From Lama guanicoe (lineage: Eukaryota), in assembly GCA_013239625.1 (NCBI GenBank), contig MU053347.1:154132-218131 (forward strand): DNA of 64,000 nt, written 5' to 3'. Made by a program: the position numbers and the translations under genes. Below, piece by piece: positions 5,698 to 61,353 of this stretch; position 1 is the stretch's first letter, and the number at the start of each line of letters is the position of its first letter. The notes under the pieces were generated by a model that worked only from the letters and a program-made list of their open reading frames with translations, searched no databases and had not been told where the DNA came from.

Positions 5698-6104
5698 TGT
5701 TATGGAAACAGGCCAGCCAAGAAACAAGCACCAATCGGAGAGTTGGAGTACTCAGAATTATTATGCCGGCGGGCTCAGAGGGGCTTCTGCTCCGAAGTTC
5801 TGAGCACCTCCAGGATGTGCACATGAGGTTTTAAAGGCTCAATTACAAGTAAGGGGGTATTAGCCAATAAGGCTCAAAGAACAAAAAGCAAGGAATCAGT
5901 ACACTGCAGCTTATTAATTTGTAAAAGATCACGTTACTGACACTTGTTGAGCTTGGATTTACAAGTTAGGTTGTTAGCCCAATAAACTGACACTAAACTT
6001 CAGATTTATGAGATAGCCCAGCAGAATTTAGATCAGTAAACAGACACTTATCACACTTACATTTGTGACTTAGCTTGTTAGCCTTGCTGGACTTTTCCTT
6101 CACA
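5698..6104 (-). mobile_element. Solo LTR, same family as the provirus at 47092
   Basis: Reverse strand starts TGTGAAGGAAAAG and ends TAACA; 4-bp TSD TGAG at 5694-5697 and 6105-6108; R-U5 matches the provirus LTRs. Confidence 0.93.
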
Positions 6105-8109: not shown

Positions 8110-8518
8110 TGTGAAGGAAAAGCCCAGCTTGGCTAACAAACTAACTCGCAAATTTAAGTGTGATAAGTGTCTGTTTACTGATATAAGTTCTGCCGGGCTA
8201 ACTCGTAAATCTGAAGTTCAGTGTCAGTTTACTGGGCTAACAACCTAACTCGTAAATCCAAGCTCAACAAGTGTCAGTAACGTGATCTGTTCCGAATTGA
8301 TAAGCTTCAGTGTACTGATTCCTTGCTTTTTGTTTTATGAACCTTATTGGCTAATAGCCCATACTTGTAATTAACCCTATAAAACCTCATCTGTAGGTCT
8401 TGGAGGTGCTCAGAGCTTCGGAGCAGTAGCCCCTGTGAGCCCGCCGGCCTAATAAATCTGAGTACTCCAATCCCCCGAGTGGTGCTTTTTTCTTGGCTGC
8501 CCTGTCATTTCTGTAACA
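8110..8518 (+). mobile_element. Solo LTR, same family as the provirus
   Basis: TGTGAAGGAAAAG...TGTAACA; 4-bp TSD GTTA at 8106-8109 and 8519-8522; TATAAAA box; AATAAA at 8451-8456. Confidence 0.95.
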
Positions 8519-39193: not shown

Positions 39194-39453
39194 NNNNNNN
39201 NNNNNNNNNNNNNNNNNNNNNNNNNNNNNNNNNNNNNNNNNNNNNNNNNNNNNNNNNNNNNNNNNNNNNNNNNNNNNNNNNNNNNNNNNNNNNNNNNNNN
39301 NNNNNNNNNNNNNNNNNNNNNNNNNNNNNNNNNNNNNNNNNNNNNNNNNNNNNNNNNNNNNNNNNNNNNNNNNNNNNNNNNNNNNNNNNNNNNNNNNNNN
39401 NNNNNNNNNNNNNNNNNNNNNNNNNNNNNNNNNNNNNNNNNNNNNNNNNNNNN
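39194..39453. other. Assembly gap (N run)
   Basis: 260 N. Confidence 1.
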
Positions 39454-40749
39454 AGAATTCTAATTTGTTCAAGTTAAAAAAAAAAACAGATAAGAGTTTT
39501 CATGGGATTTTTTAGTAAGTTTTGAATTATCTTTAGGAGAACTTACATCTTTACAAAACTGCTTTCCTCCATGCAATATATTGATGTCTCTACATTCACA
39601 CCTCTTACTTTACCCCTCAGTACAGTCCTGTAGGTTTCTTCATGTAGAAAATGGACATTAGTTTTGAGTTTATTCCAGATTATTGTTGATGTTTTTGTTA
39701 ATTTTGTAAGTGAGAATTTTTTGCTATTATATTTTTTAACTGTTTAAACTGACACCTAGGAAGGCAGATTCGGTTTGTAAATACTCACTTTGTAACATGT
39801 CACTTAAAATTGGAAGTATTAAGTACTTGTTCCAGAATCCTTTCTTTTCTGTTTTTAAAATTTGTTTCCAAGATTATCAAAATGGTCAGAGCTAAGTAGT
39901 ATAGGTGGGGAGACAGATGGAGAGAGGTAGTGAGGCTCATGTACAAACTGTGAGCACTTTCATGGCTGCCTTTAGGCTGGAGAGGCCTCAGAAGAGCCCA
40001 GGTTAGACCAGGGGTGGCTTCATATGCACTTGAAAGCCAGCTTTCCTGCCTTTATGGTGAAGCCTGCCGGGCGAGGCAGATAGTTGATCAAGGTCCGATG
40101 GAGGTCATTGGCTGCACAGAGCGCTGTGTCTGTGAGAACTGGAGACCATAGCCATGGGAAATGCTTGGTGCCAGGAAAATGCAGGGGAGCTGGGGAGCCT
40201 GTGTGTTAAGGATTTTCCAGCCCTGGGAGTGGGAAGATCAGACTCTGCATTCAGATCTGAGTTTGAATTCATCCTCTCTTGTTTACTGGTCCTCTGACTT
40301 TTGTCAAGTTATATACCCTCTTTGAACTCCTGTTTTCTTGTCTCTCAAAACAGGAGAATTACGGCCTGCTGCTAGAGTGTTTGATCAGGGTAAATGATTT
40401 GTGCCTATAAGATGCCACTTACAGTCACAAGCTCAGTGAGATATGGGCTGTCGCCTCCTCTTCTGCAAATCGGTGCTTGACAAGACATGAGGGAAAGCCA
40501 GTCCCTAATTTGTGTGTGATGCAAGCAGGAAAAAAATTAAAGTTTTGCCTTTCCCTAGCAGTATTCTAACTCCTTTGCTTCATTTACTTCTTTCCTCCTT
40601 TCCTTTCCCCTTTCCCCTCTTCCACCAAAAGAGCCTGAGACTTTCTCAGAACAATAGATACAAATTATTTTAAAGGTTGGCTTATCCTCATGAAATGACA
40701 GTAACATAGAAAAAATCTGTTCACATCCCATAATTCATTGTATTTGATT

Positions 40750-40792
40750 TACACACACACACACGTGCTCGCGCGCACGCACACACACACAC
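40750..40792. repeat. Interrupted (CA)n/(CG)n microsatellite
   Basis: acacacacacacacgtgctcgcgcgcacgcacacacacacaca. Confidence 0.9.
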
Positions 40793-42185
40793 AAAATCAG
40801 GCAACCTCCCAATTACTGAGGGAGAAGGACCACTTTTTCTGAGTTTTCATTCACTGAGTGTAAGAGCAAAGTCTCTTACGCAGGCTTTCAACTGGCTTCG
40901 TGCATGGTGTTTTTAATTGGATTTCTGCTTTGTGGCCATAGAAATATTCTCCTATTAGAAGAGAGGAAGTGGAGACATAGACATTCTGCTGAGATATTGG
41001 TGTCATCATATTTGAGTTGGAAAGGACTTAAGACAGCATAGGGTCATACATTTTTATGGGTGAGAATCCATGATGGTGTAATTTGGACAAGAAGCTGGGT
41101 CTCCTGCCATCGTGTCCACGCAGGCGAAGAGGCAACTGGGTGGGGGATGGCAGGGATCCTTCTTGCTTGAGTTCCAGGGTCTTGCTAGTTTTCATTGCTC
41201 AGCTGCCTTTAGTTTATGTCCATGAGGCCTCTCATGGGAAGGTCACTATGTCCTGAGAGACTGAGTTTCTAGTTAGCAAAAAGCTCTGGACCCACTCATA
41301 TTTCCCAGAGTTTTCTGCTGACCTGCTGACACTTTATATAAATGAGATCTAAGAAACTACTGGATATAAAATCCTTATTGTTATCATTTGCCCTCGAGTT
41401 TCATAGTAATGAGGTGCTGTCTCAGGCTGTCTAAGGCTAAATCTGAACAAAAATAGGGTGATAGGCTGTGCTGCTGCAACCTCCCCAGTCGAAGGGGATT
41501 TCCACCTTAGTTTTTAGAATCAGGCAGATGAGTTAAAAGCTTGCCTTTACCAGTTATTAGCTTTGTGAACTTTGGGAAGAAACTGTACATTTTTGTGTCC
41601 AATTTTCTTTATCTGTAAATAAGTTCAGTATTTATTCTAAGATTTTTGTTTTAGAATTGAATGAGCTAATTCCCTCATTTATACCTAAAATACTGATCGC
41701 GTGGTTCTATGCTGGTTCATTGCTAGTTGATTACTAAGGGACTCGGCAGTGAGAATGGGGGTGGGGGACTCCTGGATCATAGAGCATTTATTCCAGGATA
41801 TGCTTGTAAAAGACTAGATGTGCAGTGGATTTTTAGTAAATATCCATTCCTTTCCTAATCCGCATTGATTGTTTATATATCATTATACTAATATGTGAAC
41901 AATTTTTTATTGCAATTTAAATCTTTGTAGTATTTAAAATATGTAGCTATAACACAAATACATGAAATAAAATGATTTGACTTTTATTTTCTTTCAATAA
42001 GCAAAACAAAATAAAATAGAAATGAAAAAAGTTTTGAAGGAGTAGAAATAATTTTATTTCCGTGGAATCAATTCCCTATGATAGGTTTTTTTGTTTTGTT
42101 GTTAAACAGCATATAAAAGTGATAGGTTGTGACATATTGGAAATGAGGAAACAGTGGAGACATACTACCTCCAATGCAGTCAGTT

Positions 42186-42724
42186 TTTTATCAAGTCCAA
42201 ATTCGTTCTGTTTGCTGCATGACAGGCCAATAAATTGGGAGATAAGGTGTTGGATCAAATAATAGTGACTTTATTTGAAAATCTGGCAGACCCAGAAGAT
42301 GGCAGAATGATATCATGGTGAACCCTCTTCCCCAAGTCAGAATTCAGTCTCCTTTTATACTAAAAAGGGGCAGGAATGTGGTTGGTTGTTGCAAACTTCT
42401 TGCTGTATGAATTGTTTGTCCTTGGAATCCGCTGTTCTTGCAGCTGTCCATGTGGGTCAAATCATGATGCCACTGTAAAACCTCCAAAAAAAACAAAGGT
42501 TATTCTCTATTTTGCAACTTTCCATCTCTACATAAGTGCAGAAGAGCTAACATCTTTAAAGATCAGAGCCCGGAGAATAGGCTCTCCTGGATATTTCAGG
42601 CAAAAGGCAACTTTGTTTTACAAAAGGTGCAGAGCAATCAAGTTTGAGCCTAGAAAACTGGGGACAGGTTTAAAGCCAAAGGAACACATCTAACATGGAG
42701 TCAAATTTGTTCTTTCCTATTACA
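42186..42724 (-). mobile_element. Older ERV1-type solo LTR (related to 5275-5660)
   Basis: tcaagtccaaattcgttctgtttgctgcatgacaggccaataaattgggagataaggtgttgg is the reverse complement of the 3' end of the 5275 element; ends ...cctattaca. Confidence 0.7.
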
Positions 42725-43882
42725 ATTTTTTTCCACCTCATAAATTGTTTTAGTAAGAAACATGAACAATTTTTTTTATTTTTGCTTCTTAGTAACGGAG
42801 AAATGAGCCAACTACAGTTTTGTGAGCAGGGATGCTGTGCGTGCCTTGGGGTCACAGCAAACTCTTGTTGGGGGTGGCCGACCCTGCAACATGTCTCATG
42901 CCCCGTGAGTGTTGGTGAGGGTCTCCCTAACCAGGGGCTCTCTTCAGGAACCACCATATCTTCATTGACCTCTGGAGACCTCTTTTTCAGCTACAGGAAA
43001 TTTTTTCAGATACTGTGATGGAAAAATCACTCCAGCTGGGGATAATTAGGGAATAAAGGAAGAGGAAAAGGGCTTGGAGTAGATTAGAAGAGAAGGACAG
43101 AAGATCAGGGAGCCTGGGGGCTTGGCAGCGGGGCCTCGGGAGAGAGAGGAGCAGAGGTGGGGAGGGGCCCGGCTCCGGAACCAGCTCCTGCACCTGTCCC
43201 CGCGCCCAAGCCACACAGCTTTTAATTTGCCCAGGACGCTTTCCTGTCTGGATGACACCCTGGGCAGGACCTTGAGAATCAAAGGTAAGGTTGGCAGCAT
43301 TTACCTAGGGGGTAAATGAGGACTTTGGTCAAGTCCACAGTGCCTTTTCTGGTCATGTGCCTTCACCTGTTCTTTATCTCAGGATCTGAGAAGCAGTAGC
43401 AAGGAACTCAGGGAGAGATCCAGGAAGACATCTGACTGTTAAGACATGACAGTCACAGCGACACGGGGAGCGAGTACACTCGCAGCAAAGTAAAATAAGT
43501 TCACAACTATTGCTTCAGAGCTGCAGGTTTGAGAGAGCCTAAGCCTGTCTCAGAGTGCAGGGGACAAGCGGAATGGAATGGTAAAATTAACACTGACAAT
43601 TGAAATTTTGTTAAATAGCCTGCTACTGTTAATTGTATCACTTGAATGTATGCAGGTGTATTTCTGTGGGCATTTATAGGTTCACGCAACCCCACCAGCC
43701 CCTCTTGTCCCCATCGGGGATGGGATTTCTCAAGCACAGGGCCCCTCCTGCTTGGGTGGGCCACGCTGCGGGTCCTCGCCTGGGGCCGGGTGCTGCAGGG
43801 CACTGAGTCCCTGAGGCACGGCCTGTGAGACACGACAGGAACATCTCTGCTCTTGACTGAGCTCGTCCTTTACCCCCTGCAG

Positions 43883-44006
43883 TGTTAGAATGCCGGTGAC
43901 TCAGTTAGAAGCATGCTTCGAAGCTGTCCAGGTACTTGCCATCCAGAAGCGGAGCCTGGAAGCTTCCGAATTTCTCCTGAATGCGGTTTACTTTCACCTT
44001 CGACAG
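43883..44006 (+). pseudogene. TRAPPC9: TRAPPC9-like pseudogene exon 7 equivalent (last one seen)
   Basis: ctgcag|TGT TAG AAT GCC..; [35 protein letters not shown] versus [35 protein letters not shown]; donor CAG|GTGAGT; stop in codon 2 plus a small deletion. Confidence 0.93.
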
Positions 44007-47000
44007 GTGAGTGTGTGTTCTTTTACAAGTAGAGGAATTACTGCCGTTTTCCTGGAACTTACTCACCACTAGTACATCTGATTTTTCTGTGCTAGGATTC
44101 AGTATGGCCTGCTAAAAATTCTGCAGTCAGATCTTGAAACCCTGATGAAGAGGATTATTTATTTCATTTCTTTATATGATAGTATTTTACTTTCAAAATT
44201 CAGAGTTCTCGGTTCTTTGAGGAATTTTTTCGGAGGTTGGAGAAACAAATTTGCTCTTACCATCTTTGCGACCTGTTGCTATATGCCTCTCACCTGTCTT
44301 CTGTCACTTGTGAGGCGGTTCCATTTGTGACCCTGTACAGATTGTTCATGTTATAAAACATAAACTCTGTGAAAGTACAGTCCCGTTTACTCCGAAGACA
44401 TTCCACAAATACTCCTTAAATCTGGGTGTGGTTTTAAGAAGACAGAATCATTAGAACATGTGCTTGCAGGTTGCTAGTGCAAAATCCCCAAATCAATAGT
44501 CTAGCTCAACATCTAAAATCTTTCTAATCTACCTTGGATTTGTAGGGATATACCTTGGATGGGATAAGTGAAGCAGTTTGCAAAGAACCCAAGACCAGGT
44601 TTAGAATACAGGCTGGTGTAGCTCAGCAGGTCCTCCCAAGCTGATGCTCAGCAGTGTCCTGCCCTGCCTGAGCTGACAGTTTCATGGCAAAGACCTTCAC
44701 CAGGTGAAGAACTTGGAGTTTCTTCTAAGAACAGTGGGTTTGAAAATAGTCCTAAAAGCGCGGAAGTGACACAATCCCATTTGTCTCAAGTAGGGGAGAG
44801 CGGCTGTGGGGCCACTTGGGAGACTCGTGAGTCCAGGTGGGCAGTGTTGGTGGCTTCCACTTGAGTGGTGAGACGGTCAGTGGGTAAAAGCGGACAGACT
44901 GAAGGCATGTTTAGATGGTAAAAAGGAAAGAATGAATGCTGTCTGTGAAAGTAGGGTGGAGTACGGCCCAGGTTTCTGGGTGGATTAATGAGGAAAATGA
45001 TGGCCCTGTCTGTGCTCTGAGGAGGGAAAGCTGCAGAGGGAGTTCTGGGGGAAGACTGATGAGTTCAGCTGTGGGTAAAGTGAAAGGCTGTTCGATTTGT
45101 GGTCTGGGAGCTCTGGTGGGAGCCAGTAGTGAGTAGGGGGAGGGGAGAGAGACCTTCAAATCATTTTGCCTTGTGAACATACAAATAAGTATGAGTAATG
45201 ACACAGTTAACACCTCTATATTCTGGATTTAAAACCCAGTAACATTTTGCTATATTGACTGCTCGGGTTCTTAATTTTTTTTAATAGAAATAAAATAAAT
45301 AGAAACAAAATAGTGGAGTTAATGAACATCTTAGAGTTGACGTGTGTCCTTGTATGTATTTTGATACTTCATCTGTTTATAACCATAATCTACAAAAAGT
45401 TAGCTTGCTTAGCATAAGAGTTAAACAGAGGGAAGTGACACACACTGTTGGGGGTTGAAGCTGATCTTCTCTGGCAAATTATGTTGCCTCTCTGTGACTT
45501 AGCTGCATCTTCTGTGACTGCCCCCCCCCCGCCCCTCATGACAGCTGATTTCCTAGAGTAGATGTTGGGAGGGAGGCTGCTGAAGGGAGTAAGAAGTGGC
45601 AACTGCAGAAGTGGCAAAGGGATACTGAAGAGAGAGACAAAAACAGATTAAAGCCGATAAACTGAGTACAAATACCCTCAAAACAGAAAGAATCCCGCAG
45701 TATTTTGAGCCACTTAGCGTAAGGGAAACAAAATCACCTGGACCCAAACTCTTGAGCATGTGAGTATTGTGGGTGGGAGGGTGTCATTAGAAAAGGGTTG
45801 AGAAAAGGCCTTTTGGTTTCCCTTGACATTTCCAGTAAGGATGGGGAGCAGAAGCGAAAACCCTCCGCTTCAGTGGAAGCTGCTGTTTTGTGTGAAACTG
45901 ACCAAAAGTTGGAAACCAGCAATCAGCGGTGCTGGCAAATGAACAGATTTCTGGATTGGGTGAGGCACTTGCTGTGACTTCCAGGTGACCTGCTGGCTGG
46001 GGGCTCTGTGGCGGGCAGTAGTTTTGCAGGGTGACCTGGGCATAATCCCTGGCTCTGTGGCTGCTGGTCTGACTAACAGACCTGGGCACCCGCAGTCCTA
46101 ATGGGGCAGCTCGAGATGTGGCCTGGGACACCTGCTGTGCTGAGGGCGAGAAGAGGGCTCCCCTGAGGGGGTGTCCCTGCGGAGACTGGAAACATCCTCC
46201 TGCAGGGGAGGAAGAGCCTCTGAGCAGGGGGCCGAATGCACAGGCAAGACCAGCCTGAGCACTGTGTTTTCCGGGAGCCGGAACTCATACAGTGGCCCAA
46301 ACCGCTTTGTTCCTGAGAGACTGGAGGGAAAAGATGCTGAAAAGGTAGGCTAGTGTCACACCCTGTGGTGGGTCATGAGTGACAGTCAGGGACTGGTCAG
46401 GTAGGCACGAGAGAACCCTGTGGGAGTCCCAGCTGGGGCGTCACGCCGGAGGGAGGAGCAGAGTTGTAGACTTTGCCACTTATTTGCTTTGTGACTTTGA
46501 GCAGTATCACCCCACCTCTCTATATATATATCTTCATCTGTAAAGTGACACAGTGACAAATTCGTGTCATCAGAAGGCTTAGTTTAGCTCTAATCCTCTG
46601 TGTCCAGCCCTGTCAGTGCTTCCCTGCAAGGTTCTGCAGCGACTGCTCTTACCCTGAGATGGGAGGGCGTAGAGGGTCATTGTAGCGCCCGAGGGCAGGA
46701 AGGGGTTGCTTTAAAAGCAGACATGTAGACTCCTGCAGCTGCAGACCTGCAGACAGTTTGGTTGACGGTCCTGGAGAGGACTTTGGAGGCCTTAGCATCG
46801 TCTTAAGTCTTGTTTTCCCTCGGGGACCGGATTTGCCTTTGCGGATTGATGTTGAAGGTTTGGGCTTCTGGCAAAGCTGTTTTCAGAGATGGGTATATAC
46901 GTAAAATATCGTATAAAATAAAATGATTTATTTAACGTGTGCGACTTTGCAGCTGTTGGGAACAGCTCTGTTGGCCTGGTCTGCACGGAGGACACTAGGG

Positions 47001-47091
47001 GTCAGCAGAGCGTGCGGGAGGGCAGGCAGCCTGCAGTGCTGCTGCGGGAGGTTCTCCCCAGCAGGGCACTCTGCTGAGTTGACTCTTTGCT

Positions 47092-47555
47092 TGTGAAGGA
47101 AAAGCCGGGCTGTTCTAAAAAGATAACTCACAAGTCTAGGAATGTGAAGGAGAGGCTGGACTGCGCTAACAAGTAAACTCACAAACCTAAGTATTGGAAT
47201 ACTGATCTGACTTCGGTTAAACTAAGTTGTAAATCTAAGTTAATTAGTGTTGATTTGCTGTTCATGTGTTTTGCTAGCCAGCTGGGATTTCAAAGATACA
47301 TATCTGGCTTTGGGATATTAGTTTGCTGCCTCCCCACCTCCACCTTTGTGATGATAATGCTGCTAAAGCTGTTCCATGCCTATTGCCTGTATACCCCAAG
47401 CTTGTACTTTACCCTATAAAACCTCATGTGCACGTCTTGGAGGTGCTCAGAGCTTCGGAGCAGAAGCCCCTCTGAGCCCGCCGGCGTAATACATCTGAGT
47501 ACTCCAAACCTCCGAGTGGTGCTTGTTTCATGACTGGCCTATTGTTTCTGTAACA
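47092..47555 (+). repeat. 5' LTR
   Basis: TGTGAAGG...TGTAACA; TATAAAA 47415-47421; AATACA 47488-47493. Confidence 0.95.
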
Positions 47556-47559
47556 TTTC

Positions 47560-47577
47560 TGGAGGCCCCAGCGAGAT
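47560..47577 (+). promoter_or_regulatory. Primer binding site, tRNA-Thr
   Basis: TGGAGGCCCCAGCGAGAT, 4 nt after the LTR; complementary to the 3' 18 nt of mammalian tRNA-Thr(TGT) as recalled (ATCTCGCTGGGGCCTCCA). Confidence 0.85.
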
Positions 47578-48802
47578 ACAACCATGCCGGCCCCTTGAGC
47601 CACTCGACTGGTGGCTCCGGCCGACCGAGGGACGGGATTCCGGCAGCGAAAGAGGTGGAGCCGCCCGACGGTATTCTGGGTTCTCCTCCGTGACGGCACT
47701 CGACCCCCGGGTGGCTGGGCTACAACCAGAGCCAGACTCCGTGGAGGGATGGACAGACTCACCAGGTGCCCGTCCAGCAAGGTAGGAACCTCCGGGAGGA
47801 ATCAGGTCCTGTTCCACTGGACAGAAAAGGAGTCTGATCCCCTCCTACTGGCTCTCCGTCTGATGGTATTTCAGATGGGGAAATCAGGAATCAGGTCAGG
47901 AATCAGGTCCTGTCCCAGTGGACAGAAGAGGAGGCGGATCCCCTCCTACAGGAAACAGGATATTGGTATTGGTGGAGAGAATGTTGTTAACCTCTGTGTG
48001 TGTGTGTGTGTGTGAGTGAATGAGCGGCCTGTGAAGCATGTGATCAGGCTCGAGTTTGTAGCTCCACGGCATTCTGCTTCAAAGTTCAAGAGAGTCCCAA
48101 CCTACCGTTCCGCGGTGACCTCATACGGCTCAGGGCAGTATCGATCCCTCAGGGTCCCAATCGGAGTCAGCGGCTTATACTGACCCGCCAAAGCTAAGAG
48201 GCACCTTCTTCCCTGCGAGGGGAGCGGCCAGGAGGACGCAACGAAAATCCTCCCTTGTCTTGTCTGCGACACCAGCACAGGGTGGCTACACTGGGAGGGA
48301 AAAGGACATAGCCAATGAGTCAACGCCCCCGTGCCCTCGGAGGCAAGGATGCTATTTCTTTGAGAAAGTCTCCCACCTGATTCTGTCACAGAACACCTGA
48401 GACTTAGTGTTCCCCTACAGAACAGACCCAAGTAGTGCCCATTTTGCCTAGCCTCAGACCCCCAGGACTCAAGTTTAGAAGACGAATTCCTTCAGGACCG
48501 GGCTCACCCAGCCTCGGAGGTCCCTTTTCTAGTCCATTTGTTTTACCATCTGCCGTCAGTCCCACACCCCTGCTACGTTAGTTCAGGATATAGAGAGGAT
48601 TTAATGAAAAAAGTCCCTGGAACTGCTTGAGGCCTTGAGCTCCAGAGACATCAGCTGTGACTGGAACCCAGAGTCTCTGACCAAATTAGCCTTCAGACAA
48701 CTCATAGACCCAGCAAGAGAGCAGTCTCTCTGGGAACTCCGGTGTTTTGAGGAGTGAAGAAAGAAAAGATATAAAGGCTACCTTCACATACATCTAAAAA
48801 GA

Positions 48803-50335
48803 ATGGGAGGCTCTAAGTCAAAACCCACCACTCTAGACTGCATGATTAAGAATTTCAAAAAGGGGTTCCCAGGAGACTATGGAATTCGAATGACCCCTGG
48901 CAGGCTCCGCACTTTGTGTGAGCTTGAATGGCCGGCCTTTGGAGTTGGGTGGCCCTCAGGAGGAACTCTGGACCTAGCAACAGTGCAAACAGTCTATCAA
49001 ATAATCATTGGAACCCCAGGCCACCCAGATCAATTCCCTTACATTGACTCCTGGCTGAATATCGCCCAGACTCTAACCCCATGGTTTCGGTTCTGCTCAA
49101 ATGGACCTGGACAATGCAAGATATTAGCAGCCCAGCCGGTCCAGGCCAAAAAGACAGACAGAAAAAAGCCTATTTTCCAGGGAGATGCAGAAGACAGATA
49201 TGCCTACCCCTCCGTATGCCCCCGGGGCATCAACACCTCCCCAACCTGAGGACCCAGAGGCAGAGCCCAGCCCCCAGCCTGAGCCGGTAGGGAGGAGACT
49301 CCGCTCAGCACAAGCCATGAAGCCAGCACCACCGGCACTCCAAATGCCGCTGCAGGAGAAACAAGTTCCGCAGCAATTTGGGGAAGACGGGACTGTTCAG
49401 CCTGGGCACCCCGTACTCTACTACAAACCCTTTAGCACCACAGACCTCAATTGGCGCCATCGTACTCCTTCCTACTCCGAAAAGCCGCAGGCTATGATTG
49501 GCCTCATATAGTCTATCTTCCATTCTCACCGGCCCACCTGGGAAGATGTCGCCAGCTGCTTCTGACTCTTTTCAATACAGAGGAGAGGAGATGCATTCTC
49601 ACTGAAGCACAAAAATGGCTGCAGGGCCAAGCCCCTGGGGACACAATGGATGTTGAGGGATGGATCATGACACATGCCCCTGACACCAGACCAGATTGGG
49701 ACTTTAACACCCAAGAAGGAAGAGAAGCGCTGCGTAAGTCCCAGGAGGCCATCCTACAAGGGCTAAGAGCAGGAGCCAAGAAGCCAACTAACATGACTAA
49801 AACGACCACAGTGACCCAGAGGCCAGACGGAACCCCCATTGACTTCTATGAGAGACTATGTGAAGCATTCTGAGTCTACACTCCTTTTGATCCTGAGGAC
49901 CAAGAAAACCAGCGGATGGTCAACGCTGCCTTTGTAGCCCAATCATAAACAGATATATGCCGGAAACTCCAAAAACTGGATGGATTTGCAGGAATAATTG
50001 CTACACAGCTGCTGGAAGTAGCAAAGTTTTTGTAAACTGAAAATGGGAAGCCCAGTGAGAAGCAGACCAGCGAATGAAGCAGAAAGCCACACTCCTTGCA
50101 GCAGCCCCGAGGAAAACAAGCTTCAGCCAGAATCCTGCACCTCCCAGAAGAGGGGACCCCAACCATGGGTGCCCCTGGGCCGAGACCAGTGCGCATACTG
50201 CCGGGAGACAGGACACTGGAAGAACGAGTGCCCAAACAGAAAGGATGGAAAGAGAGCACCCTCAAAAGGCCTACTTATCAGCTGGGGCCACCAGCCAGTA
50301 ATCACATCGGACCGGCTGGGGTCGACTCAGAATAG
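48803..50335 (+). pseudogene. gag: ERV gag (MA-CA-NC), disrupted
   Basis: MGGSKSKPTTLDCMIKNF..LRTLCELEWPAFGVGWPSGGTLD..GHPDQFPYIDSW (myristoylated MA); PPPY-like PTPPY; CA with QRPDGTPIDFYERLCEAF (MHR); zinc knuckle DQCAYCRETGHWKNECP; several frameshifts and stops; terminal TAG 50333-50335. Confidence 0.95.
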
Positions 50336-50575
50336 GAGAGACCAGGCTCCCTGCCCCTGGGCCCCTGGGAGCCCAAGGTCAAGATGTTTATAGGGGGCCA
50401 ACCAATGACTTTTATGGTAGACACAGGAGCAGAGTATTCTGTGGTGACCCAATCTGTAGCCCCCATGACCAAGAAAAAGGCGACTATTATAGGGGCTACT
50501 GGGGACTCAACTGCCCACCATTTCTGCCAACCACAATCCTGTCAAGAGTAGGGGGCCTCTAGTGACACATGCCAT
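50336..50575 (+). pseudogene. pro: ERV protease (N-terminal part), in frame after the gag amber stop
   Basis: ERPGSLPLGPWEPKVKMFIGGQPMTFMVDTGAEYSVVTQ; active-site DTGA at 50420-50431. Confidence 0.92.
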
Positions 50576-50582
50576 TATTCAC

Positions 50583-50700
50583 TGTAAGGGACCATATTTA
50601 GTGGTATTAACTACCCCTACAGCTGTTAAAGTTGCAGGAATCACCCCTTGGATCCACCACTCCAGGGTTAAGAAAGCGACTTCACCTCAGACAGAGGGTC
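50583..50700 (+). pseudogene. pol: ERV integrase C-terminal remnant (GPY/F region)
   Basis: [31 protein letters not shown]. Confidence 0.9.
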
Positions 50701-51119
50701 CCTGAAAAATTAAGTGTCCCGGGAGACCCGCTCAAGATCAAGATCAAGAGAGACCAAAAAAGGATCGACGAGCCCTGCTCTAGCCACACCCAGAAGCTGG
50801 CTAGTCAACGCTCGGCTGAAGCTTGAGGAAAGGTCAACGCAGCTGTTAAAAGTATTTCTTTTGTGCTCCCTTGCCTCTTTCCTTGTTTGCTATACTAGTC
50901 TGCGTACTAGCAGTGGGGCTAGCTAGCGCCGGCCCACCTGACTGGAACATAGGCCATAGAGTCCTGATAGCTATTTTATATCTTGGTATAATTAGTGCCA
51001 TCACTGCAGCATCATGTCTAAGATAATCGTAAGGCTGATGTTACTGACGCTAATGCCCTCACTCTCCTTGGCTGTACAATGCACCTGCATGGAATCGGGT
51101 GACAAATGGTCCATGTACC

Positions 51120-51600
51120 AACCTGTATTTTCAGCTTACAGGTGAATTCAGCCACGATCTCCAACAAATAGCAGAAACCCTGGGAACTCTGCAAAATCAG
51201 ATTGACTCTCTGGTCGAGGTGGTCTTACAAAACAGGAGGGATCTGGACATACTCACGGCCAGAGGGGGCGCTATGCCTCTTCCTAAATGAAGAGTGCTGT
51301 TTCTGTGCCAATCAATCAGGAATTGTCAGAGGGATGGTTCAAGAGTTACAAGACTGAGTGGAAAAGAGAAAACATATTTTAGATAAGAGCCCATGGACAG
51401 GCCCCTGGGTCTGGACCTCCTGGCTATCACCATTCATAGGTCTCTTACTCCTGATTTTTGCAGTTCTGCTGTTTGGGCCCTGTGTCCTAAACTTCCTGAC
51501 CCACTTTGTCTGTGAGTGGATAAAGGCTATAAAACTTCAGATGTTAGCCTCTAATTATGAGCCCCTGCAACAGATAAGTGATGATGCTTACTCCAACTAG
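51120..51600 (+). pseudogene. env: ERV env transmembrane subunit remnant
   Basis: LQNQIDSLVEVVLQNRRDLDILTA (immunosuppressive domain), frameshift, LCLFLNEECCF (CX6CC), TM helix WLSPFIGLLLLIFAVLLFGPCVLNFL, IKAIKLQML. Confidence 0.93.
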
Positions 51601-51615
51601 AGTGGTGAAAGCATC

Positions 51616-51627
51616 AAGAGGGGGGAA
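51616..51627 (+). promoter_or_regulatory. Polypurine tract
   Basis: AAGAGGGGGGAA immediately before the 3' LTR TG. Confidence 0.9.
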
Positions 51628-52092
51628 TGTGAAGGAAAAACCGGGCTGGTCTGACAAGATAACTCATAAGTCTAGGAATGTGAAGGAGAGGCTGGGCTGG
51701 TCTAACAAGATAACTCACAAATCTAAGTATTGGAATACTGATCTGAGTTCTGCTAGGCTAACTAGTAAATCTAAGTTAATTAGTGTTGGTTTTCTGTTTA
51801 TGTTTTTTCACTAGCCAGTTGGGTTTTCAAAGATACATATCTGGCTTTGGAATGTTGGTTTGCTGCCTCCCCGCCTCTACTTTTGTGATAATAATGCTGC
51901 TAAAGCTGTTCCATGCCTATTGGCCGAATACCCCAAGCTTGTACTTTACCCTATAAAACCTCATGTGCACGTCTTGGAGGTGCTCAGAGCTTCGGAGCAG
52001 AAGCCCTTCTGAGCCCACCGGCGTAATACATCTGAGTACTCCAACCCTTCGAGTGGTGCTTGTTTCTTGACTGGCCTGTCGTTTCCATAACA
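51628..52092 (+). repeat. 3' LTR
   Basis: TGTGAAGG...CATAACA; collinear with the 5' LTR; TATAAAA 51952-51958; AATACA 52025-52030. Confidence 0.95.
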
Positions 52093-52603
52093 TAAGCATT
52101 AAACCAGAATGCAGTGAGCATCTCAGGCAGTCAGCTAAGAGATTGCAAAGGCAAAAAGAAATGTCACTGTTCTATATAGCCAAGCAGATACAACCCATTA
52201 TATCAAAAAATTTAAAGTAAACAATAACTAGTTTTCAAGTCAGAGAAATTGGCAACACCATTTGTCACACATTATTCATACTAATTTTACCTGGTAACTG
52301 TACTAACCATCTGTGTTAGCTAATTAGTTTTATCTAAAAGAATAACAAACTTTTCATTATTACAACAAGAGATAGTTTTGCATCTTGGAGCAAGAAGGCC
52401 ACCAAGAAATTAGACTCCTACTCTCCCACAAAAACTGAGAGATCAGGAGTCCTATCTCCCTTGATGCTAGCATTTCCAGGAGATGGCACACAGGTTCTTG
52501 AGAAAAACTATCCTGGGGCATAAAGCTGACAAAAGGCCAACTAACAAAAGGCATATTTAACCTTCAAAAGGATGATAAGAAACTGCTACAATTACAAGCT
52601 TCC

Positions 52604-53044
52604 TGTGAATGAAAATACTGCAACCACATCAGTAAAAAATGCTGAAATCAGGTCATCAGCAGCTGCTGCCACCCCCCATCGAGGACAGGCCTGCAGCCCA
52701 GCCTCTGCAGCCACTCACAATGGTGCCCTCTGAGTGGACTCAGAATAAGAAAGAACAAAATAAAACACCCTAGATAGCTAGAGGCTTGTCAGAGGAATGA
52801 ATGCAGTGATCCCAAATGTTTGCTTCCTCCCATACATAGAAAAGCACTCCATTCTTGAAATTGAGATGCCTGGCTTTCTTTAGATAACAAGCAATCTTTT
52901 ATCATTCCCAATACCTGGCCTTTGTTGTAAAGCACCTGTATATCCTAGCTTCTCCCCTACCTCTTCGGAGCAGCCCCTCAGAGTTCTTCTGCCAGATGAA
53001 ACAGAACTCTCAACTTTTAGGCTGTGCATTTATTTCAGTCAACA
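52604..53044 (+). mobile_element. Probable older solo LTR (different family)
   Basis: Starts TGTGAATG, ends TTTCAGTCAACA; LTR-like text cctacctcttcggagcagcccctcagag...aactctcaacttttaggctgtgcattt. Confidence 0.6.
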
Positions 53045-56000
53045 ACACCAATTAGGTCTCAGAGATCCTGGACTGAATAGGAGTCCCAGGATTGGATGTT
53101 TTCCATTTTAGTATGCCTTGCTGGTCAAAGTGGGATCAAAGGGTAAACTTTCCATCACTAATCAGATCTGAAGAAATATTAGATATTGACACGATATTTC
53201 CATTCACATTATTGATAAAATGGTAACTCAAGCTATTTAATTGACTTTCCCACAGGTTAGATCATGACTAGTAACTTTTTTTTTTTTAAGTACCTGTCTT
53301 TTTAGCTGACCAGTGATTCCCTATTTTGGTGCATGGCACATTCATAAAATCCCACTCCTAATAATTTATCTTTGTCTTTACCTCTTATATACCCTAAAAT
53401 GGAATCAAAAGTTTAAGACTTAGTATGACTAAAATGATTCTGTAGAGCTGAATACTTTCTTTGTATCTTCTGATAGAATTGTCTAAGAATTTCAACATTT
53501 TTCCTTTTCTTAGAATTCCACAGTAGCCATAACTCAATTCCCAGAATTTCCCTCAAGAATATATTATTCTTTGGGTTTTTTTCCTAATAATTTATAATGA
53601 AGTCAGAAGCCATGGCCTCTTAATGTATATGCAGACTGTCTAGCACTCTGATTTTAGGTATATTAAAAATTATATTATATATGCATATATATAATATATA
53701 GGCATGTGAGTATTTATATAAAGTATCACTGGAAATATCAGAATAACAGTGGTGATTTATGTGGATAAGAATAGAGCTGAAAGGATGAAAAAAGATAGGA
53801 AAAAATTAAAATGTTCAATGTAACCTTATTCCTCAGAGTCTTGTAATAAATAGTGCACCAGTGGGCCATAGCTGGTCATGGTGCCTAAGTGAGGGCACAA
53901 TATGGATTTGCTAAGTGTGCTTTACTTTGAAATGGAGGCTCTTCATTCTCTGGTTATTGATGGTATCATTTGTAACATTATTTTTATTCAACCATGAACA
54001 ATGGAAAATTAAAACGACTTTGATCACTTTGGAAATTCTCGGCATGGCTTTTCATTTGTAACTATCAATTATTTAAGGAATAGTTTTAAATGGCTCTCAG
54101 AGCCCTTTTGGGGGTAAAATTACAGTAACTTAGGTAGCAAATGTGAATGATCTAAGTTTTTAGTTCCATATGGAATAAAAATGCCTTATAAAAGAGTCAC
54201 ACTGCCACCTACTGACAACTTTTTGTAAAAGAACCAGCATTTTCTCATTAGCCTAACTGACTGTGCACTTTAATGATCTATTACTTGGCATGTGGCTGTA
54301 TGGAAAAAAGGGGTAACAAAGTGTATCCATTGCTCAGTGCATCTACTTGAAATAATCTCACCATTCACAGAGGCCATTTCAAGCTATTCAGTTTTTAACT
54401 TTTACATACTGCAATTAGATACATTTTTTTTCAGATACATTTATTAACGGCATTACTGCATAGTATTTCATAACTGATAAAACTATTTTCAGGAAAGTGA
54501 CTGCAGAGTGTATGTTAAAAAATCTGCCCTGCATTTATAGTGCATAGAGACTTGCTAATAGGATTTTCATAACAGCATTCATCTCCCAGCACATTTTATA
54601 GTACCAACCACTATGTAACAGTAGTGTTGTTATTACATTATGTGAAAAATAGGATTTGTTCTAAGGACACGTGTTATAACCTGAACTGTGAAAGTACAAT
54701 GGTAGTTGAAGCACCTATGCACTAAACCATTTTCATTCCTATCCTTTTCTACCTTTGCCAGAGTTGATATAAGAAAAACATCCTGTGCTATTATAAATAG
54801 ATCAAAGATTCATATCAGTATTTCCCATGAACTAGGAGCTCAGGAGTGTAGCATCCTTCTGTACAGTGACTATGATGTTGCAGATAGCAAGAATCAACTC
54901 CTCCCAATTAGTAGCAATCATCATCAAATTGAATGTATTCCTCAGCTGATTTCCATGGAATCATGTTACTGATTTCTCTTTCTGCCATGTTCCAAGATGT
55001 GGAATTTCTCTCCAAGTTAAAGTTTAAATTCAAAGCATTATTTTTCACAAGAGAAAATTCATGAGTACTTTTATCAGTTTTTCAGATAACCACGTGCTGT
55101 GCATATTTTAAAACAAATACAAAAGAAAAAAATTGCAAACTTGGCCAAACTCATAATCCCTTACAAAATAATCCATACACAAAACCCGAGCTCTGAGCCC
55201 CATGTAACAATAGCCAAGTACCTCAGTTGTTCATAATCCTCACAAACAAAAAGAAACAATTTTCAACCTAAAACTGCTTAAAATAGCTTAAATGTAGGTA
55301 AAAATCAATCAGAGGACTTACCATCAGCCTACTGTTTTACATATTTGTTGCCTGAAGTCAATGAAAGGAGAATACACAATACTGCAGAGCTGAAAGCCAT
55401 GCACTATTCAGGTAGGGCACATGATTGCATATATTGTCATAACTGGCTTTCCTAAGATTTATTATAAAACACAGTGAATTAAAGGCTCTCTTGAATGGGG
55501 ACCCAAGAAAGCATAACATTCTGCTCTCAGAACTCCATCTCAGTTTGAATAAGAAATCACTCAAGAAGATATGAAAGGCCTAGATTTTCATGCCACCTTT
55601 TAACTAGGTCTAAATAAATGTTAAAGATTCTTGCTACATTTCTTTGCCTTACAAAATAGAGCATTTGCAAATGATAATCCAGTTATAGCCACTACAAAGA
55701 GCATCATGACTGAAAGATATCTAGGCTTTCTTTTCCCTCAACAAAACACATTTAAAAGACTGCAGAGAAATGCATATAGAATATGGAACATTTCCATTAA
55801 TAGCACTGTTATTTTATAGAAACTTGACAATGAAATATTTATAGTTGAACTATTTTTCACTTTATTTTGCTTGTTTCAGATCATTTTGCGCCACATAGTA
55901 AATTAGGATTTATATTTATCTTCAGATCTGTCTTTTGATTTTTTGGCTTAAATTAGCTGGATACTCTAATAATGGCTGAACCCTAATTAATTCTAGAATT

Positions 56001-57403
56001 CTAGAATCATAACGCTGAATCAGAAAGACCTTAGAGTTTCAGCCCTCCCCCTTAACAGGCAAAGAAAATGCTCCTGGCGGTACAGGGATAATGCCAGCTG
56101 AAAATATTCTGGGGAGAATGCAAATTAGAAATGTTAGAGTAATCTACCACACTGCAAAAGAGAAATTTCTTTTTTCTGAATTTAGATCTGATATAGAAAT
56201 GAGATTTACATCTGTGGAAACTCCTTGTGGTGAATTTCAACTGGAGACTTTAAAGTCAAAACAAAGCCAAGATGTTTTATATGGAAAGAGAGGAGGAAGG
56301 CATTTTCTGTCTTTTTAATTGCAAAAACATATCTGGCCGGCTAGCACAGAGGATATTTAGAAGATTGAACAGTCATAGTTCAGCCCTGGATCTCAGATCC
56401 CTGAGAAAGTTTAAGCCACTGATTATGACCCTTTTTACTGGTAAAGTGTCCAGTGTTTATTTTCCTCAAAACAACCCTTCCACCCCCAAATCTGCAGTTT
56501 TGTTTTTATTGATTCTGAGCCAAATACTCCAATGTGTGCTGATCTAAGCACGTACATGTCCTGGGTTGCCCTGACAATCCCAAATTCTGCTTGTTACCCA
56601 GAAGTAGATAATAATAGTGGCTCTTTTATGGTTGATAAGTTCCATTTTAAGTTATTCACGCCAATTCTAATCCAAGTGCATCTGTGACTGCCACCTTTTG
56701 CCTGCTCAGTGGAATTTTGTGGGTGGTCTTATTGTGAGTGGGTGGTCTTATTGTGAGTTGGTGGGTATAGCCTGAAACATCAGTGGACCCTCAGGCTCTA
56801 GCTCCATCCTCCCAGGAGGGCTTCAGGGCTTTTAGGCAGAAGGAATAGCATATTGGGAATGACTGTCAGTCCTGGTCTTTTCCAACACGTTTTCCTGAAA
56901 CAAGGAGGATGCTTGTGGGTGGGAGGAAGCTTCCAGGGAAGAAGGGAATAGTACAGCTCGTGCTGAAAGAAACTCAAGACTCATTATTTTCTTCTGCATT
57001 TGTTTGGAGAACATTTAATGAGGATGTGTGTTAGATACTTGGAAAGTAGGATGACATAGTCCCTACTATGAGAGACTCTTTGTTCAGAGAGAGAAAAGGT
57101 CAAGTCAAGTAACAGTGGATACACAGGGACATTTAATCACTCAGCTTGAGGATATGGGGACATGAGTCACAGAGAGATTTAGGGAGGGCAGTCACTTGAA
57201 CTACAATTTGGAGGACATAATATGAGTTAACCAGGCTGGGGTGGAAGGGATGGGAAAGGACCTCTGGGTAGAGGGAATAGGACCTGCAGAGGCATAGTGT
57301 ATGTTTTGTACCAGTTAACTTTTGCTGTGTAACAAGCCATCCCCCTCAATTAAATAAAAAAAAAAAACAGCATTATTTAGCTTACCCTTCTGTGGGTTGG
57401 CTG

Positions 57404-57880
57404 TGTTGCCAGAGAGTAGGTTCTTGCACAGGAAAGGATTCAAGAGTGAGCCATAGTAAAGTGAAAGCAAGCTGACTTAGAGAGGTACACATTCCATAGG
57501 CAGAATGCATCCATCTCAGAAGAGATACTGACCATGAGTTCTGGGGGTTGTTGGTGTTTATGGGCTGGGTAATTTCATATGCTAACAAGTGGGAGGATTA
57601 TTCCAACTATTTGGGGGGAAAGAGTAGGGATTCCCAGGAATTGGGCCATCACCCAGTTTTTGACCTTTTATGGTCAGCCTTGAAACTGTCATGGCACCTG
57701 TGGGAGTGCCATCTAGCATGCTAATATATTACAGTGAGCATAAAATGAGGCTCAGGGTCTACTGGAAGTTGAATCTTCTGCCATCTTGGTGCTAATTGGG
57801 TCTAACCAGTTTATGTCCTATCCTCAATGGCTGTGTCATTCTTTTAGTGGTTGCACCCTGTCCTCTTCCCTCTTGTCTCA
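57404..57880 (-). mobile_element. Probable ERV1-type solo LTR next to the gap
   Basis: TGTTGCC...CTTGTCTCA termini; aagatggc/gccatctt motif; appears inserted in a MaLR-like fragment starting about 57308. Confidence 0.65.
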
Positions 57881-57882
57881 AC

Positions 57883-57963
57883 NNNNNNNNNNNNNNNNNN
57901 NNNNNNNNNNNNNNNNNNNNNNNNNNNNNNNNNNNNNNNNNNNNNNNNNNNNNNNNNNNNNNN
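57883..57963. other. Assembly gap (N run)
   Basis: 81 N, ending 17 nt before the collagen exon. Confidence 1.
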
Positions 57964-57980
57964 TTCTTCTCCTTTGAAAG

Positions 57981-58315
57981 GATTCCACATAGATTTGTCT
58001 GTAGGAATTGATGTCTCCACCCCCAGGAGGCAAATTCAGCAGTCGCTTGAAGGGTTACTGCCAGAGCTGATGCAAGAGCTAGCCTTGCTTTCCAACATCA
58101 GCTGTAGCCTTCCTGGTCAAACCGACGTGATGTTCCACTACGTGGTTCCTGGTTCAAGTGGCCAGCTCATCTTTGACTCAGGTTTTGAAAAGTACAGTGA
58201 TGGGAGAATTCAGAAGTTCTTGATTCAGCAGGCTGCCAATAGCAACCACATGGATGTGGGTTTTTTGCAGTCCCTGGGAGATAGTGCTCTCCGCCTCTCT
58301 TCTGCTAAAGTGAAG
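57981..58315 (+). CDS. COL6A4: Collagen VI long-chain N1 (VWA-like) domain exon, best fit alpha-4
   Basis: tttgaaag|GA TTC..: FHIDLSVGIDVSTP..LLPELMQELALLSNISC..FDSGFEKYS..FLQSLGD..SSAKVK|gttaca; 335 nt, phase 1 to 0, open; homologous to but distinct from remembered COL6A3/A5/A6 N1 domains. Confidence 0.8.
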
Positions 58316-59581
58316 GTTACAAATGCTGAGAACCCACATTATCGAACCATTAGGCATGAGGAGGGATAAGGCTTTTGGGACTGAGGACAAATAAACTGTT
58401 CTTCACTGAGGATCATGCATAGAGGAAAACTAGTCTTATTCAGTCAAGATTGACAAGAGATGTGTTTTCATTCAATAAACAAGTATTTACTAAGCGCTAG
58501 AGGCTCTTTGCTAAATGTCATTAGAGGTAAAAGGTTAAAGTCACTGCCCTTGGGTTGCCCACAGCTTAGCGATCCAGGTTTTCCACGACATAAATTCCTT
58601 CCAAAGACAGCTTGGAAGATATTAGCTCCTCATGGTCACTCATTGTAAGAACCCATTGTTTCTCTCTTTCTTTCACTCTCTCTCTTTCATGATTTTATTT
58701 ATTTATTTGTTTGTTTATTTATTTTAATTGACATATAGTCAATTTCCAATGTTGGGTCTGTTTCTGGTATACAGCATCATGTTTCATATACATACATCTA
58801 TTCCTTTTCATATTCTTTTTTTGTCATCAGTTACTACAAGATATTTAATACAGCTTCCTGTGCTATATAGTAGAACCCTGTTGTTTGTCTTTTTTATATA
58901 TAGTAGTATCTGCTGATCTCACACTCCCAATTTATCCCTTCCCAACCCCTTCTCTACTCTGGTAACCATAAGTTTGTAGGACCCATTGTTTTTGTAATCA
59001 GCCCCCTGAACCATCTTTAGTGACAGTTAATGGCTTGTTAGCATAACCCCTCTCCTCCCTTTCTGCTGCCCCAGAACCATGCACCCACAGAAGTCATAGA
59101 AGTAAAAAGATCTCATATGACATCTATTAGGAAAAGACCTCCCCAAACTTTGAAAGTTACATTGAGTTTTTCCTTCCATCATGCATCCGATGGATTTATT
59201 TCTTAAAAAATGTAATTCACTTTTTAAATTCAATTTTTCTATGAGTAAAGGTAACAGAGGTAAAGAACATTGTAAGACAATTTTTGGACGATATCTTTAA
59301 GTGAACACATTAAGCTGCTTCAAATTCTTTTTCAGCGGTGGGGGTGTGTGTGGGAGGACATGGAGGACAAGTGAGTGTGTAATAAAGTAATAAATGAATG
59401 GGTAAAATGGAATAGAACAGGGTGAAAGGCTGGTTATAGCTTACCCTTGCATTTTTTAAGAAACGTGCAATTTACAGCATCCATCTTTTCCATTGCCCCT
59501 CCCCTCTGTCCTCCCTTCTTCTTCCTTCTCCCTGGTCCCTCTGTTCCTGCATCTCCCATACCCCCCTCTCATAAACAACAG

Positions 59582-59660
59582 GTCCTTTTAGTGTTTACAG
59601 ACGTATTGGATGATGATTTAGAGAGACTGAAGGAAACGTCCCAGCTTCTCCGCAGCAAAG
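59582..59660 (+). CDS. COL6A4: Collagen VI N1 domain exon (second)
   Basis: aacag|VLLVFTDVLDDDLERLKETSQLLRSK G|gtaatt; 79 nt, phase 0 to 1; compare COL6A6 VVLLFSDGLDDDVEKLEQKSDELRKEG. Confidence 0.85.
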
Positions 59661-60549
59661 GTAATTGCATGTTGTTGTTCCTCCCACAGGGGCAGAGATG
59701 GTCTTTCAGATTCCGGATGGCCCAGGAATCTCTGAGCCCCCGAAGGCTAAGCCAGGTAATTGGAGCTCAGTGCCCAAGAGGCTGCTGCCCAGTTTCTGGC
59801 TTCGTATGAATCAGGGGGCTATTGAGGGCTGAGAGACCCCTGGGTCTCTCTGACTGAGACAGGGCTGACCAGTTACCAGTCCAGCATCTGGTTCAGAAGG
59901 TTGTGGGTGCAACCCCTGCTTCGTGGGAAGTGGGTGCTCTCTGCTCTTTTCAGCTACCCAGGGGTCCAACCGTCTCTCTTTCCTAAACTCTAAAATCACC
60001 CTAAAGCTGCGTCTTACTTTTTCTACTGTCCTTCCTCCCTGATTCTTCTTTATCCATCTCCAAGGGCTGCTGCATACATACATGTATATGTACATATATA
60101 TGTATATAATCAAAGTATAGTTAGTTTGCATTACTGTATTAGTTTCAGGTGTCCAACATAGTGATTTGATATTTTTGCAAATTATACTCCATTTAAATTT
60201 ATTATAAAATATTGGTTATATTCCCTGTGCTGTACAATATATCCATGTAGCCTATTTATTTTATACATAATAGTTTGTATTTCTTAATTCCCTCCCCCAA
60301 TTTGCCACTCCCCTCTTTCTCTCCACACTGGTAACCACTAGTGTGTTCTCTTTATGTTAGTCTCTTTCTGTTTTGTTATATTCATTTGTTTGTTTTATTT
60401 TTTAGGTTCCCCACATAAGTGATAAATAACATAGTCTTATCTTTATCTGATTTATTTCACTAAAAGTGATACCCTCCAGGTCCGACTATGTTGTTGCAAA
60501 TGGCAAGATTTCATTCTTTCTATGACTGAGTAGTATACCTTTGAATATA

Positions 60550-61353
60550 CAGTTGACCCTTGAACAACCGGGGGTTAGGGGCACCAACCCTGAGTACAGT
60601 TGAAGACTCATGTATAACTATATTATTGCAGAAAAATGTGTGACAGCTCAGTGGTACAGCTCAGTGTTATGGCTCAGTGTTACAGCTCAGTTGTGACAGC
60701 AGCCTGGATCCGGGTGAGAGACCAAGCAGCACTCGGAGAGTAGGAGAACTCAGGTTTATTATGCCAGCGGGCCCAGAGGAGTTAACACTCCAAGCTCTGG
60801 ACCCCATCTGTAGGTTTACACAGGCTTTTAATAGGCTGTCAGTTTACACTTTGCAACATCATATGCAAATAAGATATAACAATAGTTGTCTAATTAGGAT
60901 CAATCAGGAGGGAGAGAAAGAACCAATCAGGTGTAAGCTCCATGCAAATGAAGTACTACAAATGGACCAATCAGAAGTTAGGGAAATGGACCAATCAGGA
61001 ATGAAGGAAATAACCAATCAGGAGTGAGCTCAGGGAACAAATAGAATTTTAGGGGTAAGTTCCACTTTCCTAGAAGTAAGCTGTTTCAGAGGCAAAAAGT
61101 GAGATAGAGCCACTGGGCCAGGAAACTGGATGGTGCTGGCAGGAGAGTAGTGGCCATGCCTGGGGGTCCTGCCGGTCTTTTTTATGGGGCTTCCCACCTC
61201 AATATAACCTCTGTATCCACAATTCATCCATAGTTGAATCCACAGATTCAACCAGCCACGCATCATGTAGGACTATAGTGGTTATTTATTGAAAAAAATT
61301 CGCATGTTAGTGGACCCATGCAGTTCAAAGCCATGTTGTTCATAGGTCAACTA
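60550..61353. mobile_element. Tigger2-type (TcMar) non-autonomous DNA transposon
   Basis: TIRs CAGTTGACCCTTGAACAAC and GTTGTTCATAGGTCAACTA, flanked by TA. Confidence 0.85.
60624..61201 (-). mobile_element. Solo LTR nested in the Tigger element
   Basis: Reverse strand starts TGAGGTGGGAAG; TSD ATAT at 60620-60623 and 61202-61205; AATAAA on reverse strand (tttatt near 60755); repeated ACCAATCAG and CAGCTCAGTG units. Confidence 0.85.

Follow-up and report, generated by a model that had tools for sequence, protein, structure and literature searches.

Proviruses of the HERV-K(HML-2) group in primates with mismatched target-site duplications (TSDs) and non-sister long terminal repeats (LTRs) have reportedly been read, by Hughes and Coffin in 2001, as products of inter-provirus recombination that rearranged host DNA. 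Here we describe a similar case in Lama guanicoe: an LTR element of 5.0 kb at positions 47092-52092 of a 64,000-nt stretch of contig MU053347.1 (C682:154132-218131, here called the window) in an assembly of 2.05 Gb in 55,231 contigs (GCA_013239625.1). We give a probability of roughly 0.8 to the reading that the two ends of this provirus come from two different germ-line integrations, termed A (left) and B (right), that were joined by homologous recombination. The diagnostic logic and the outcome, with different target sites in the flanks and unpaired LTRs, are the same as in the HERV-K(HML-2) cases. In contrast to these, the window element is gamma-type with a 4-bp TSD and resides in another host, the proof comes from paralogous unfilled sites in one genome instead of orthologous sites, and the LTR tree is not decisive.

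Non-allelic homologous recombination mediated by human endogenous retroviruses (HERVs) has been described (Campbell et al., 2014; PMC4195946), as has a recurrent HERV-H translocation (PMC3292815). In those cases, dispersed copies of endogenous retroviruses (ERVs) supply the homology for deletions, duplications and translocations, which is the likeness to the present locus, but the events portrayed there are recent or recurrent in patients or populations, whereas the event in the window is old and fixed, has flanks that are 3–8% diverged and lies at the edge of an array. Solo LTRs can arise by recombination between different proviruses, according to PMC3228705, and two relatives of the window element, on contigs C1369 and C6476, likewise are single LTRs with unmatched flanks; unlike the solo LTRs portrayed there, the window copy retains internal sequence. 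Ectopic gene conversion among LTRs, as outlined in PMC4921805, is another route to discordant LTRs, but it alters LTRs without a swap of flanks, and here the flanks were swapped. The event in the window is thus of a known kind, ERV-mediated ectopic recombination, and adds an instance from a further host and virus class, with no new mechanism.

The LTRs, flanks and target sites on which the comparison rests are as follows (window positions):

5698-6104, minus strand: solo LTR, related subtype, flanked by the perfect 4-bp TSD TGAG (on the plus strand)
8110-8518, plus strand: solo LTR, related subtype, flanked by the perfect 4-bp TSD GTTA
44099..47091, plus strand: last ~3 kb of a cut-off unit of a multi-copy tandem duplicon (copy search)
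47088-47091, plus strand: TGCT, immediately before the 5′ LTR
47092-47555, plus strand: 5′ LTR (l5), 464 nt, TG...CA
51628-52092, plus strand: 3′ LTR (l3), 465 nt, TG...CA
52093-52096, plus strand: TAAG, the 4 bp right of the 3′ LTR and target site of integration B
52093..58929, plus strand: right flank, a family of four copies (window, C1369, C4153 and C5183; copy search)

The provirus was found to lack a TSD, since TGCT and TAAG agree at only one of four positions. Related proviruses with readable flanks keep theirs (three of five perfect, namely ATAC, TAAG and AGGG, and the other two matching at 3 of 4 positions), and therefore the match at one of four positions in the window is not ordinary decay. 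The two solo LTRs in the window that carry perfect TSDs belong to a sister LTR subtype and have only R-U5 in common with the provirus LTRs. The TSD-less flanks, and the perfect TSDs of these two solo LTRs, had been noted in an earlier interpretation made from the letters of the window (the sequence-only reading), and both observations held. TAAG also stands directly after the 3′ LTR in three elements of the family (window, L083 and L089), extended to TAAGCAT in the window and L083, which may be chance or point to a preferred target.

The left flank belongs to a large tandem duplicon that covers window ~1-47091. The best 40 of 164 first-look candidates obtained with the left 1.5 kb were all 87–92% identical to it, and most of them stop at window 47085-47087. 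The duplicon has at least 40 copies at this level of identity, arranged in tandem with a period of ~60–70 kb; copies on one contig lie 60.6–70.5 kb apart (e.g., C2129:7681954, 7750011 and 7820523, or C682:138265 and 199723), and many others are on small contigs. All seven copies without the LTR that were fetched continue into a sequence termed X at the very nucleotide where the LTR begins in the window. This junction reads ...GACTCTT CTCT GAGTTTGGTTGCC, and the unfilled copies have CTCT, CTAT or CTTT once, followed by GAGTTTGG. No X was found in the window apart from a common repeat. Since C6476 has CTCT and C1369 has CTC at the left target position, TGCT probably derives by decay from the CTCT target of integration A.

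Only three relatives of the right 1.5 kb were found: C1369, 95% identical over the full length, and C4153 and C5183, both ~90% identical and broken by other repeats. Within this family the window pairs with C1369 as its sister (4.0% divergence), and the two differ by 7.1–7.9% from C4153 and C5183. The latter two have the right flank without the LTR, and in both a sequence termed Y precedes it, ending ...TTACTGAA ahead of TAAGCATT; the unfilled site reads ...TTACTGAA-TAAG-CATTACACC, with TAAG present once. These are the only two full copies of Y in the genome, and Y is absent from the window. Thus, two separate integrations are indicated because the unfilled copies of the left flank run into X and those of the right flank are preceded by Y, with neither X nor Y in the window. 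It is these flanks, with different target sites and a separate unfilled site for each (paralogs in one genome, not orthologs), and not the LTR sequences, that decide for a hybrid origin.

The same pair of junctions was found on C1369, which consists of the left flank, a single LTR of 465 nt and the right flank, colinear with window 26940-47556 and 51628-58929. The junction pair is therefore present twice in the assembly, which is independent assembly support and argues against a misjoin. It also means that the founding recombination predates the split of the two loci; it is old and need not have occurred at the window copy. The C1369 LTR has three rare variants in common with l5, all in alignment columns 22-89, and two in common with l3, in columns 186 and 268. 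This is the pattern that a crossover of an l5-like 5′ LTR with an l3-like 3′ LTR would leave. Upstream of both the window and the C1369 sites there is a typical duplicon unit with the same marker spacing as in unfilled units, which points to each locus being the truncated last unit of an array.

Substitutions between the window and C1369 differed on the two sides of the element:

Left of the element: 7.57% (1085/14340); without CpG sites, 6.68%
Right of the element: 3.17% (183/5769); without CpG sites, 2.89%

The divergence is thus 2.4 times higher on the left than on the right (Fisher p about 1e-34 for all sites and 1e-28 for non-CpG sites), and on the left its value stays even from one 500-nt bin to the next as far as the LTR. 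Between the two loci the right half is thus young and the left half old, with the change located within the element. Such a step calls for at least one further exchange with its breakpoint inside the element, which may have been a crossover or a non-reciprocal copying between A-bearing units. Faster mutation on a GC-rich left side was rejected as its cause, as the step persists without CpG sites and many left stretches are AT-rich.

Among the best 40 of 834 candidates, the junction between left flank and LTR was spanned only in the window, C1369 and C6476. In C6476 the solo LTR is followed by a sequence termed Z, which is internal sequence of another ERV in inverted orientation. The parent ERV of Z is the element located about 170 nt right of site A in most duplicon units. 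Z is unfilled at the LTR point (...CACACTA|ATACGAG) in all four other copies fetched, and the C6476 solo LTR has no TSD (CTCT vs ATAC). C6476 thus holds a third integration site, which has been fused to the A junction seen in the window. The solo LTR lies at 2982-3446 of L014 (C6476:43281593-43286071) and links a plus-strand duplicon unit to an inverted unit that is cut off ~3.5 kb beyond its own site A; the arrangement also involves L013 (C6476:43287068-43291552). The two C6476 units are 5.9% diverged in the left flank and are the closest among the pairs compared.

In the proposed mechanism, integration A would have entered a unit of the large tandem duplicon at a CTCT site, and integration B would have targeted TAAG in an unrelated segment of low copy number. 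The A and B elements would then have undergone homologous recombination via the LTRs or the internal sequence, so that the left-hand junction of A became connected to the right-hand junction of B, and X, right of A, and Y, left of B, would have been lost in the join. The product would have been a truncated last duplicon unit followed by the provirus and a foreign segment. This hybrid would be older than the split between the window and C1369, and the two LTRs of the C1369 provirus would later have crossed over and left a solo LTR. A later exchange inside the element would have been a crossover with, or a non-reciprocal copying from, another A-bearing unit. The anatomy, the two separate unfilled sites, the junction pair at C1369 and the divergence step are seen directly, while the order of these events, the second exchange and any reciprocity of the exchanges are inferred.

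The LTR sequences point in the same direction less firmly. In a global alignment, l5 and l3 differ at 45 positions (9.7%), through one indel and 44 substitutions that include 27 transitions. The first 299 nt hold 36 of them and positions 300-378 none, in agreement with the sequence-only reading, which had given roughly 45 differences over about 464 nt, mostly in U3. The LTR family yielded more than 1300 first-look candidates. Identity to other copies was 91–93% for l5 (39 best) and 94–96% for l3 (best copies), which puts both LTRs nearer to unrelated copies than to each other (90.3%). The 5′ and 3′ LTRs were paired for 15 other proviruses, and the 14 pairs that gave alignments showed 85.9% to 99.5% identity, with 13 above 90.3%. 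Most of the 45 differences are private changes, the l5 base being rare at 25 sites and the l3 base at 13 (among 28 other copies). When 32 LTRs of the provirus subtype were placed in a maximum-likelihood tree, the LTRs of control proviruses of the same type were sisters in four of four cases (bootstrap 95–100). l5 was not the sister of l3 but grouped with the C1369 LTR, a weak grouping (support 76/89), and l3 took no resolved place within the star-like family tree. Besides, no rare variant was common to l5 and l3, compared to 11, 6, 3 and 4 in the control pairs; background pairs shared a mean of 0.20, with zero in 402 of 485 pairs and a maximum of 3. The LTR sequences are therefore suggestive of a hybrid origin but not decisive.

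The pair with the lowest identity (85.9%), L071/L087 (C5183:3638466-3645978), has a 5′ LTR of the 429-nt subtype and a 3′ LTR of the 465-nt subtype, with flanks that agree at 3 of 4 positions (AGAC/AGAA). This may be a case of LTR conversion rather than of a flank swap.

Several results weigh against a hybrid origin or the course of events proposed for it. A clade of l5 and l3 was not rejected by the approximately unbiased (AU) test (p 0.285, and 0.414 without the C1369 LTR), so that the LTR discordance put forward in the sequence-only reading is weak evidence on its own; as the family tree is star-like, the LTR sequences taken alone fit an old single provirus. The step from CTCT to the TGCT of the window requires two changes, and the rare variants that the C1369 LTR shares with l5 and l3 are few (3 and 2). 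Over 3 kb of the left flank, the three LTR-bearing copies are no closer to one another than to unfilled copies (window/C1369 8.5%, window/unfilled C8176 7.4%), an absence of clustering that fits a rapid duplication burst or later conversion. Finally, neither the parental junctions (LTR to X and Y to LTR) nor a reciprocal product, or a copy with TGCT in its right flank as the sequence-only reading had envisaged, was found among the best 40 candidates scored in each search, an absence that is weak as evidence.

One ordinary old integration, in which the TSD decayed and the 10% LTR difference simply measures age, would accommodate the star-like family, the AU test that keeps l5 and l3 as possible sisters, the fact that most LTR differences are private to one LTR, and the 3–8% divergence of the regional flanks from their paralogs. 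It is contradicted by the unfilled paralogs, in which the left flank leads into X and Y leads into the right flank, with both X and Y missing from the window. Moreover, three of the four TSD positions are mismatched although sites here diverge by only a few percent, and control proviruses of similar LTR divergence keep their TSDs (AGGG in a 93.4% pair, ATAC in a 95.4% pair), which makes a single integration extremely unlikely. Integration exactly at a pre-existing junction of the left and right blocks was rejected, as it would yield a TSD and needs three coinciding boundaries. A chimera of the assembly, i.e., two loci misjoined through a repeated 5-kb provirus, is conceivable in a highly duplicated region of an assembly with this many contigs, with runs of N at 39194-39453 and 57883-57963 and with 99–100% copies of part of the window on tiny contigs. 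However, there is no N within 39454-57882, the nearest other internal copies are only 93–94% identical and would be a poor substrate for a misjoin, C1369 repeats both flanks around a 465-nt LTR that is easy to span, and the leftover halves (LTR-X and Y-LTR) were not found among the best 40 candidates per search. We regard a misjoin as very unlikely.

A third alternative accepts a single recombination of A with B followed by plain duplication, and ascribes the excess divergence on the left to later gene conversion by unfilled units. At least 40 diverged donors lie in tandem, their homology stops exactly at the LTR, where a conversion tract would also end, and a comparison of left flanks does not group the LTR-bearing copies. 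Against this stand the uniform divergence along 7 kb or more (5.6–10.6% per 500 nt), the value of about 7–9% over 14 kb of aligned blocks with no patches near 3%, and the peak of 14/91 in the last 91 nt by the LTR, where resolution of a tract needs matching sequence. Conversion of the whole left flank is thus a weaker alternative to a further exchange and, as an account of the locus, appears unlikely. The joining of integrations A and B within the provirus, with a further exchange inside the element, remains the preferred reading. As to the hybrid provirus proposed in the sequence-only reading, the core of the proposal holds, mainly on the two unfilled sites, which that reading did not have, and the element does lie at the end of a duplicated block, but the junction pair is also present at C1369 and so is not unique to this locus.

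The element itself is a gammaretrovirus-like (class I) provirus that is dead and internally deleted. Besides the LTRs, the following features were found (window positions):

47560-47577, plus strand: 18-mer like a primer-binding site (PBS), beginning 4 nt past the 5′ LTR (by sequence reading)
47797-47851 and 47898-47952: direct repeat of 55 nt, 89% identity, in the leader between PBS and gag
47995-48015: (GT)n run in the leader between PBS and gag
48758..50390, plus strand: gag remnants in several frames with stops, comprising matrix, p30 capsid and CCHC zinc knuckle (Pfam scan)
50336..50702, plus strand: N-terminal half of the protease with the C-terminal domain of the integrase directly after it (Pfam scan)
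51054..51597, plus strand: remnant of the env transmembrane subunit, in three frames (Pfam scan)
51616-51627, plus strand: polypurine tract abutting the 3′ LTR (by sequence reading)

The PBS-like 18-mer may be tRNA-Thr-like. A Pfam scan of stop-to-stop open reading frames (ORFs) detected Gag_MA (5.7e-15, ORF 48758-49246), Gag_p30 (9.6e-23, ORF 49436-49870) and zf-CCHC (4.2e-5, ORF 50022-50390), followed by RVP at profile positions 4-54 of 101 (5.3e-8), MLVIN_C (4.1e-12) and TLV_coat at profile positions 424-559 of 560 in three ORFs (9.3e-13, 4.7e-9 and 1.6e-6). All domain matches of the provirus were above the Pfam cut-offs, and their order is that of murine leukemia virus (MLV)-type gag, pro, pol and env. 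The reverse transcriptase, RNase H, the integrase core and the env surface subunit (SU) are deleted from the element, and the remaining coding sequence is disrupted by stops and frame changes. The layout of LTRs, PBS and polypurine tract and the order of domains are thus those of a gammaretrovirus-like provirus, and the 4-bp TSD is missing. Proviruses with the same internal sequence (loci L046-L089) have at least two or three LTR subtypes with R-U5 in common and different U3. Internal lengths of ~4.1–4.3 kb recur (window, C8828 and C5730:1.77 Mb) alongside copies of ~8–8.6 kb, so that the deleted internal form seems to have been copied as such.

Further elements were found in and around the duplicon and the right flank. 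Most duplicon units contain a provirus of a second ERV family, ~6 kb in length, about 170 nt right of site A; C8176 carries the solo form of this element, whose LTR corresponds to X positions 171-662 in L010. The second family yielded 2724 first-look LTR candidates, and one of its members lies inside the right flank:

52604-53045, minus strand: solo LTR of the second ERV family

Window 59200-61700 is matched at 99% on C5860 and at 100% on C46177, a contig of 539 nt; these copies are possibly uncollapsed haplotypes or very recent duplicates. A 96–98% paralog lies at C6476:41.29 Mb. A block boundary at the end of the homology between window and C1369, near 59168, was considered and rejected, as it coincides with an N gap in C1369.

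The sequence-only reading had also described the left flank as a GC-rich TRAPPC9-type intron next to an AT-rich right side, and the element as the mark of the junction of a TRAPPC9 duplicate. The contrast in composition was seen again close to the element (GC 0.54 at 46-47 kb vs 0.33–0.42 at 52-56 kb), but GC is only 0.44 at 44-46 kb. The TRAPPC9-Trs120 Pfam family gave no match in the 183 window ORFs scanned (64 of them hand-picked, at roughly ≥90 aa, from 225 then unscanned). The single match to PF08626 in the genome, in a search with a stricter first look, was on C55226, a contig other than that of the window. These searches lend the TRAPPC9 label no support. Left of the provirus no Pfam domain was detected in the 102 window ORFs scanned; this includes a stop-free frame of 365 aa (window 6362-7456, plus strand, GC 57–58%) that has no Pfam match and may reflect base composition only.

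Since the LTRs come from different integrations, dating of this provirus by its LTR divergence (about 10%) is meaningless, and LTR discordance alone would not have proved that the integrations were different. The locus stands out because it lies where a very large tandem duplicon ends and because one junction was used repeatedly. A tentative and rather doubtful extension is that a single ERV insertion in one duplicon unit was a repeated recombination hub, with its left junction joined to at least two foreign sites (B in the window and C1369, and C in C6476) and with the further exchange between window and C1369, and that ERV–ERV recombination set and moved the ends of arrays and was a main driver of duplicon spread in this genome. 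The comparison shows that the paralogs of one genome suffice to establish that a provirus without a TSD marks a real, old rearrangement breakpoint, and it links this ERV family with the edge of a very large family of tandem duplications.

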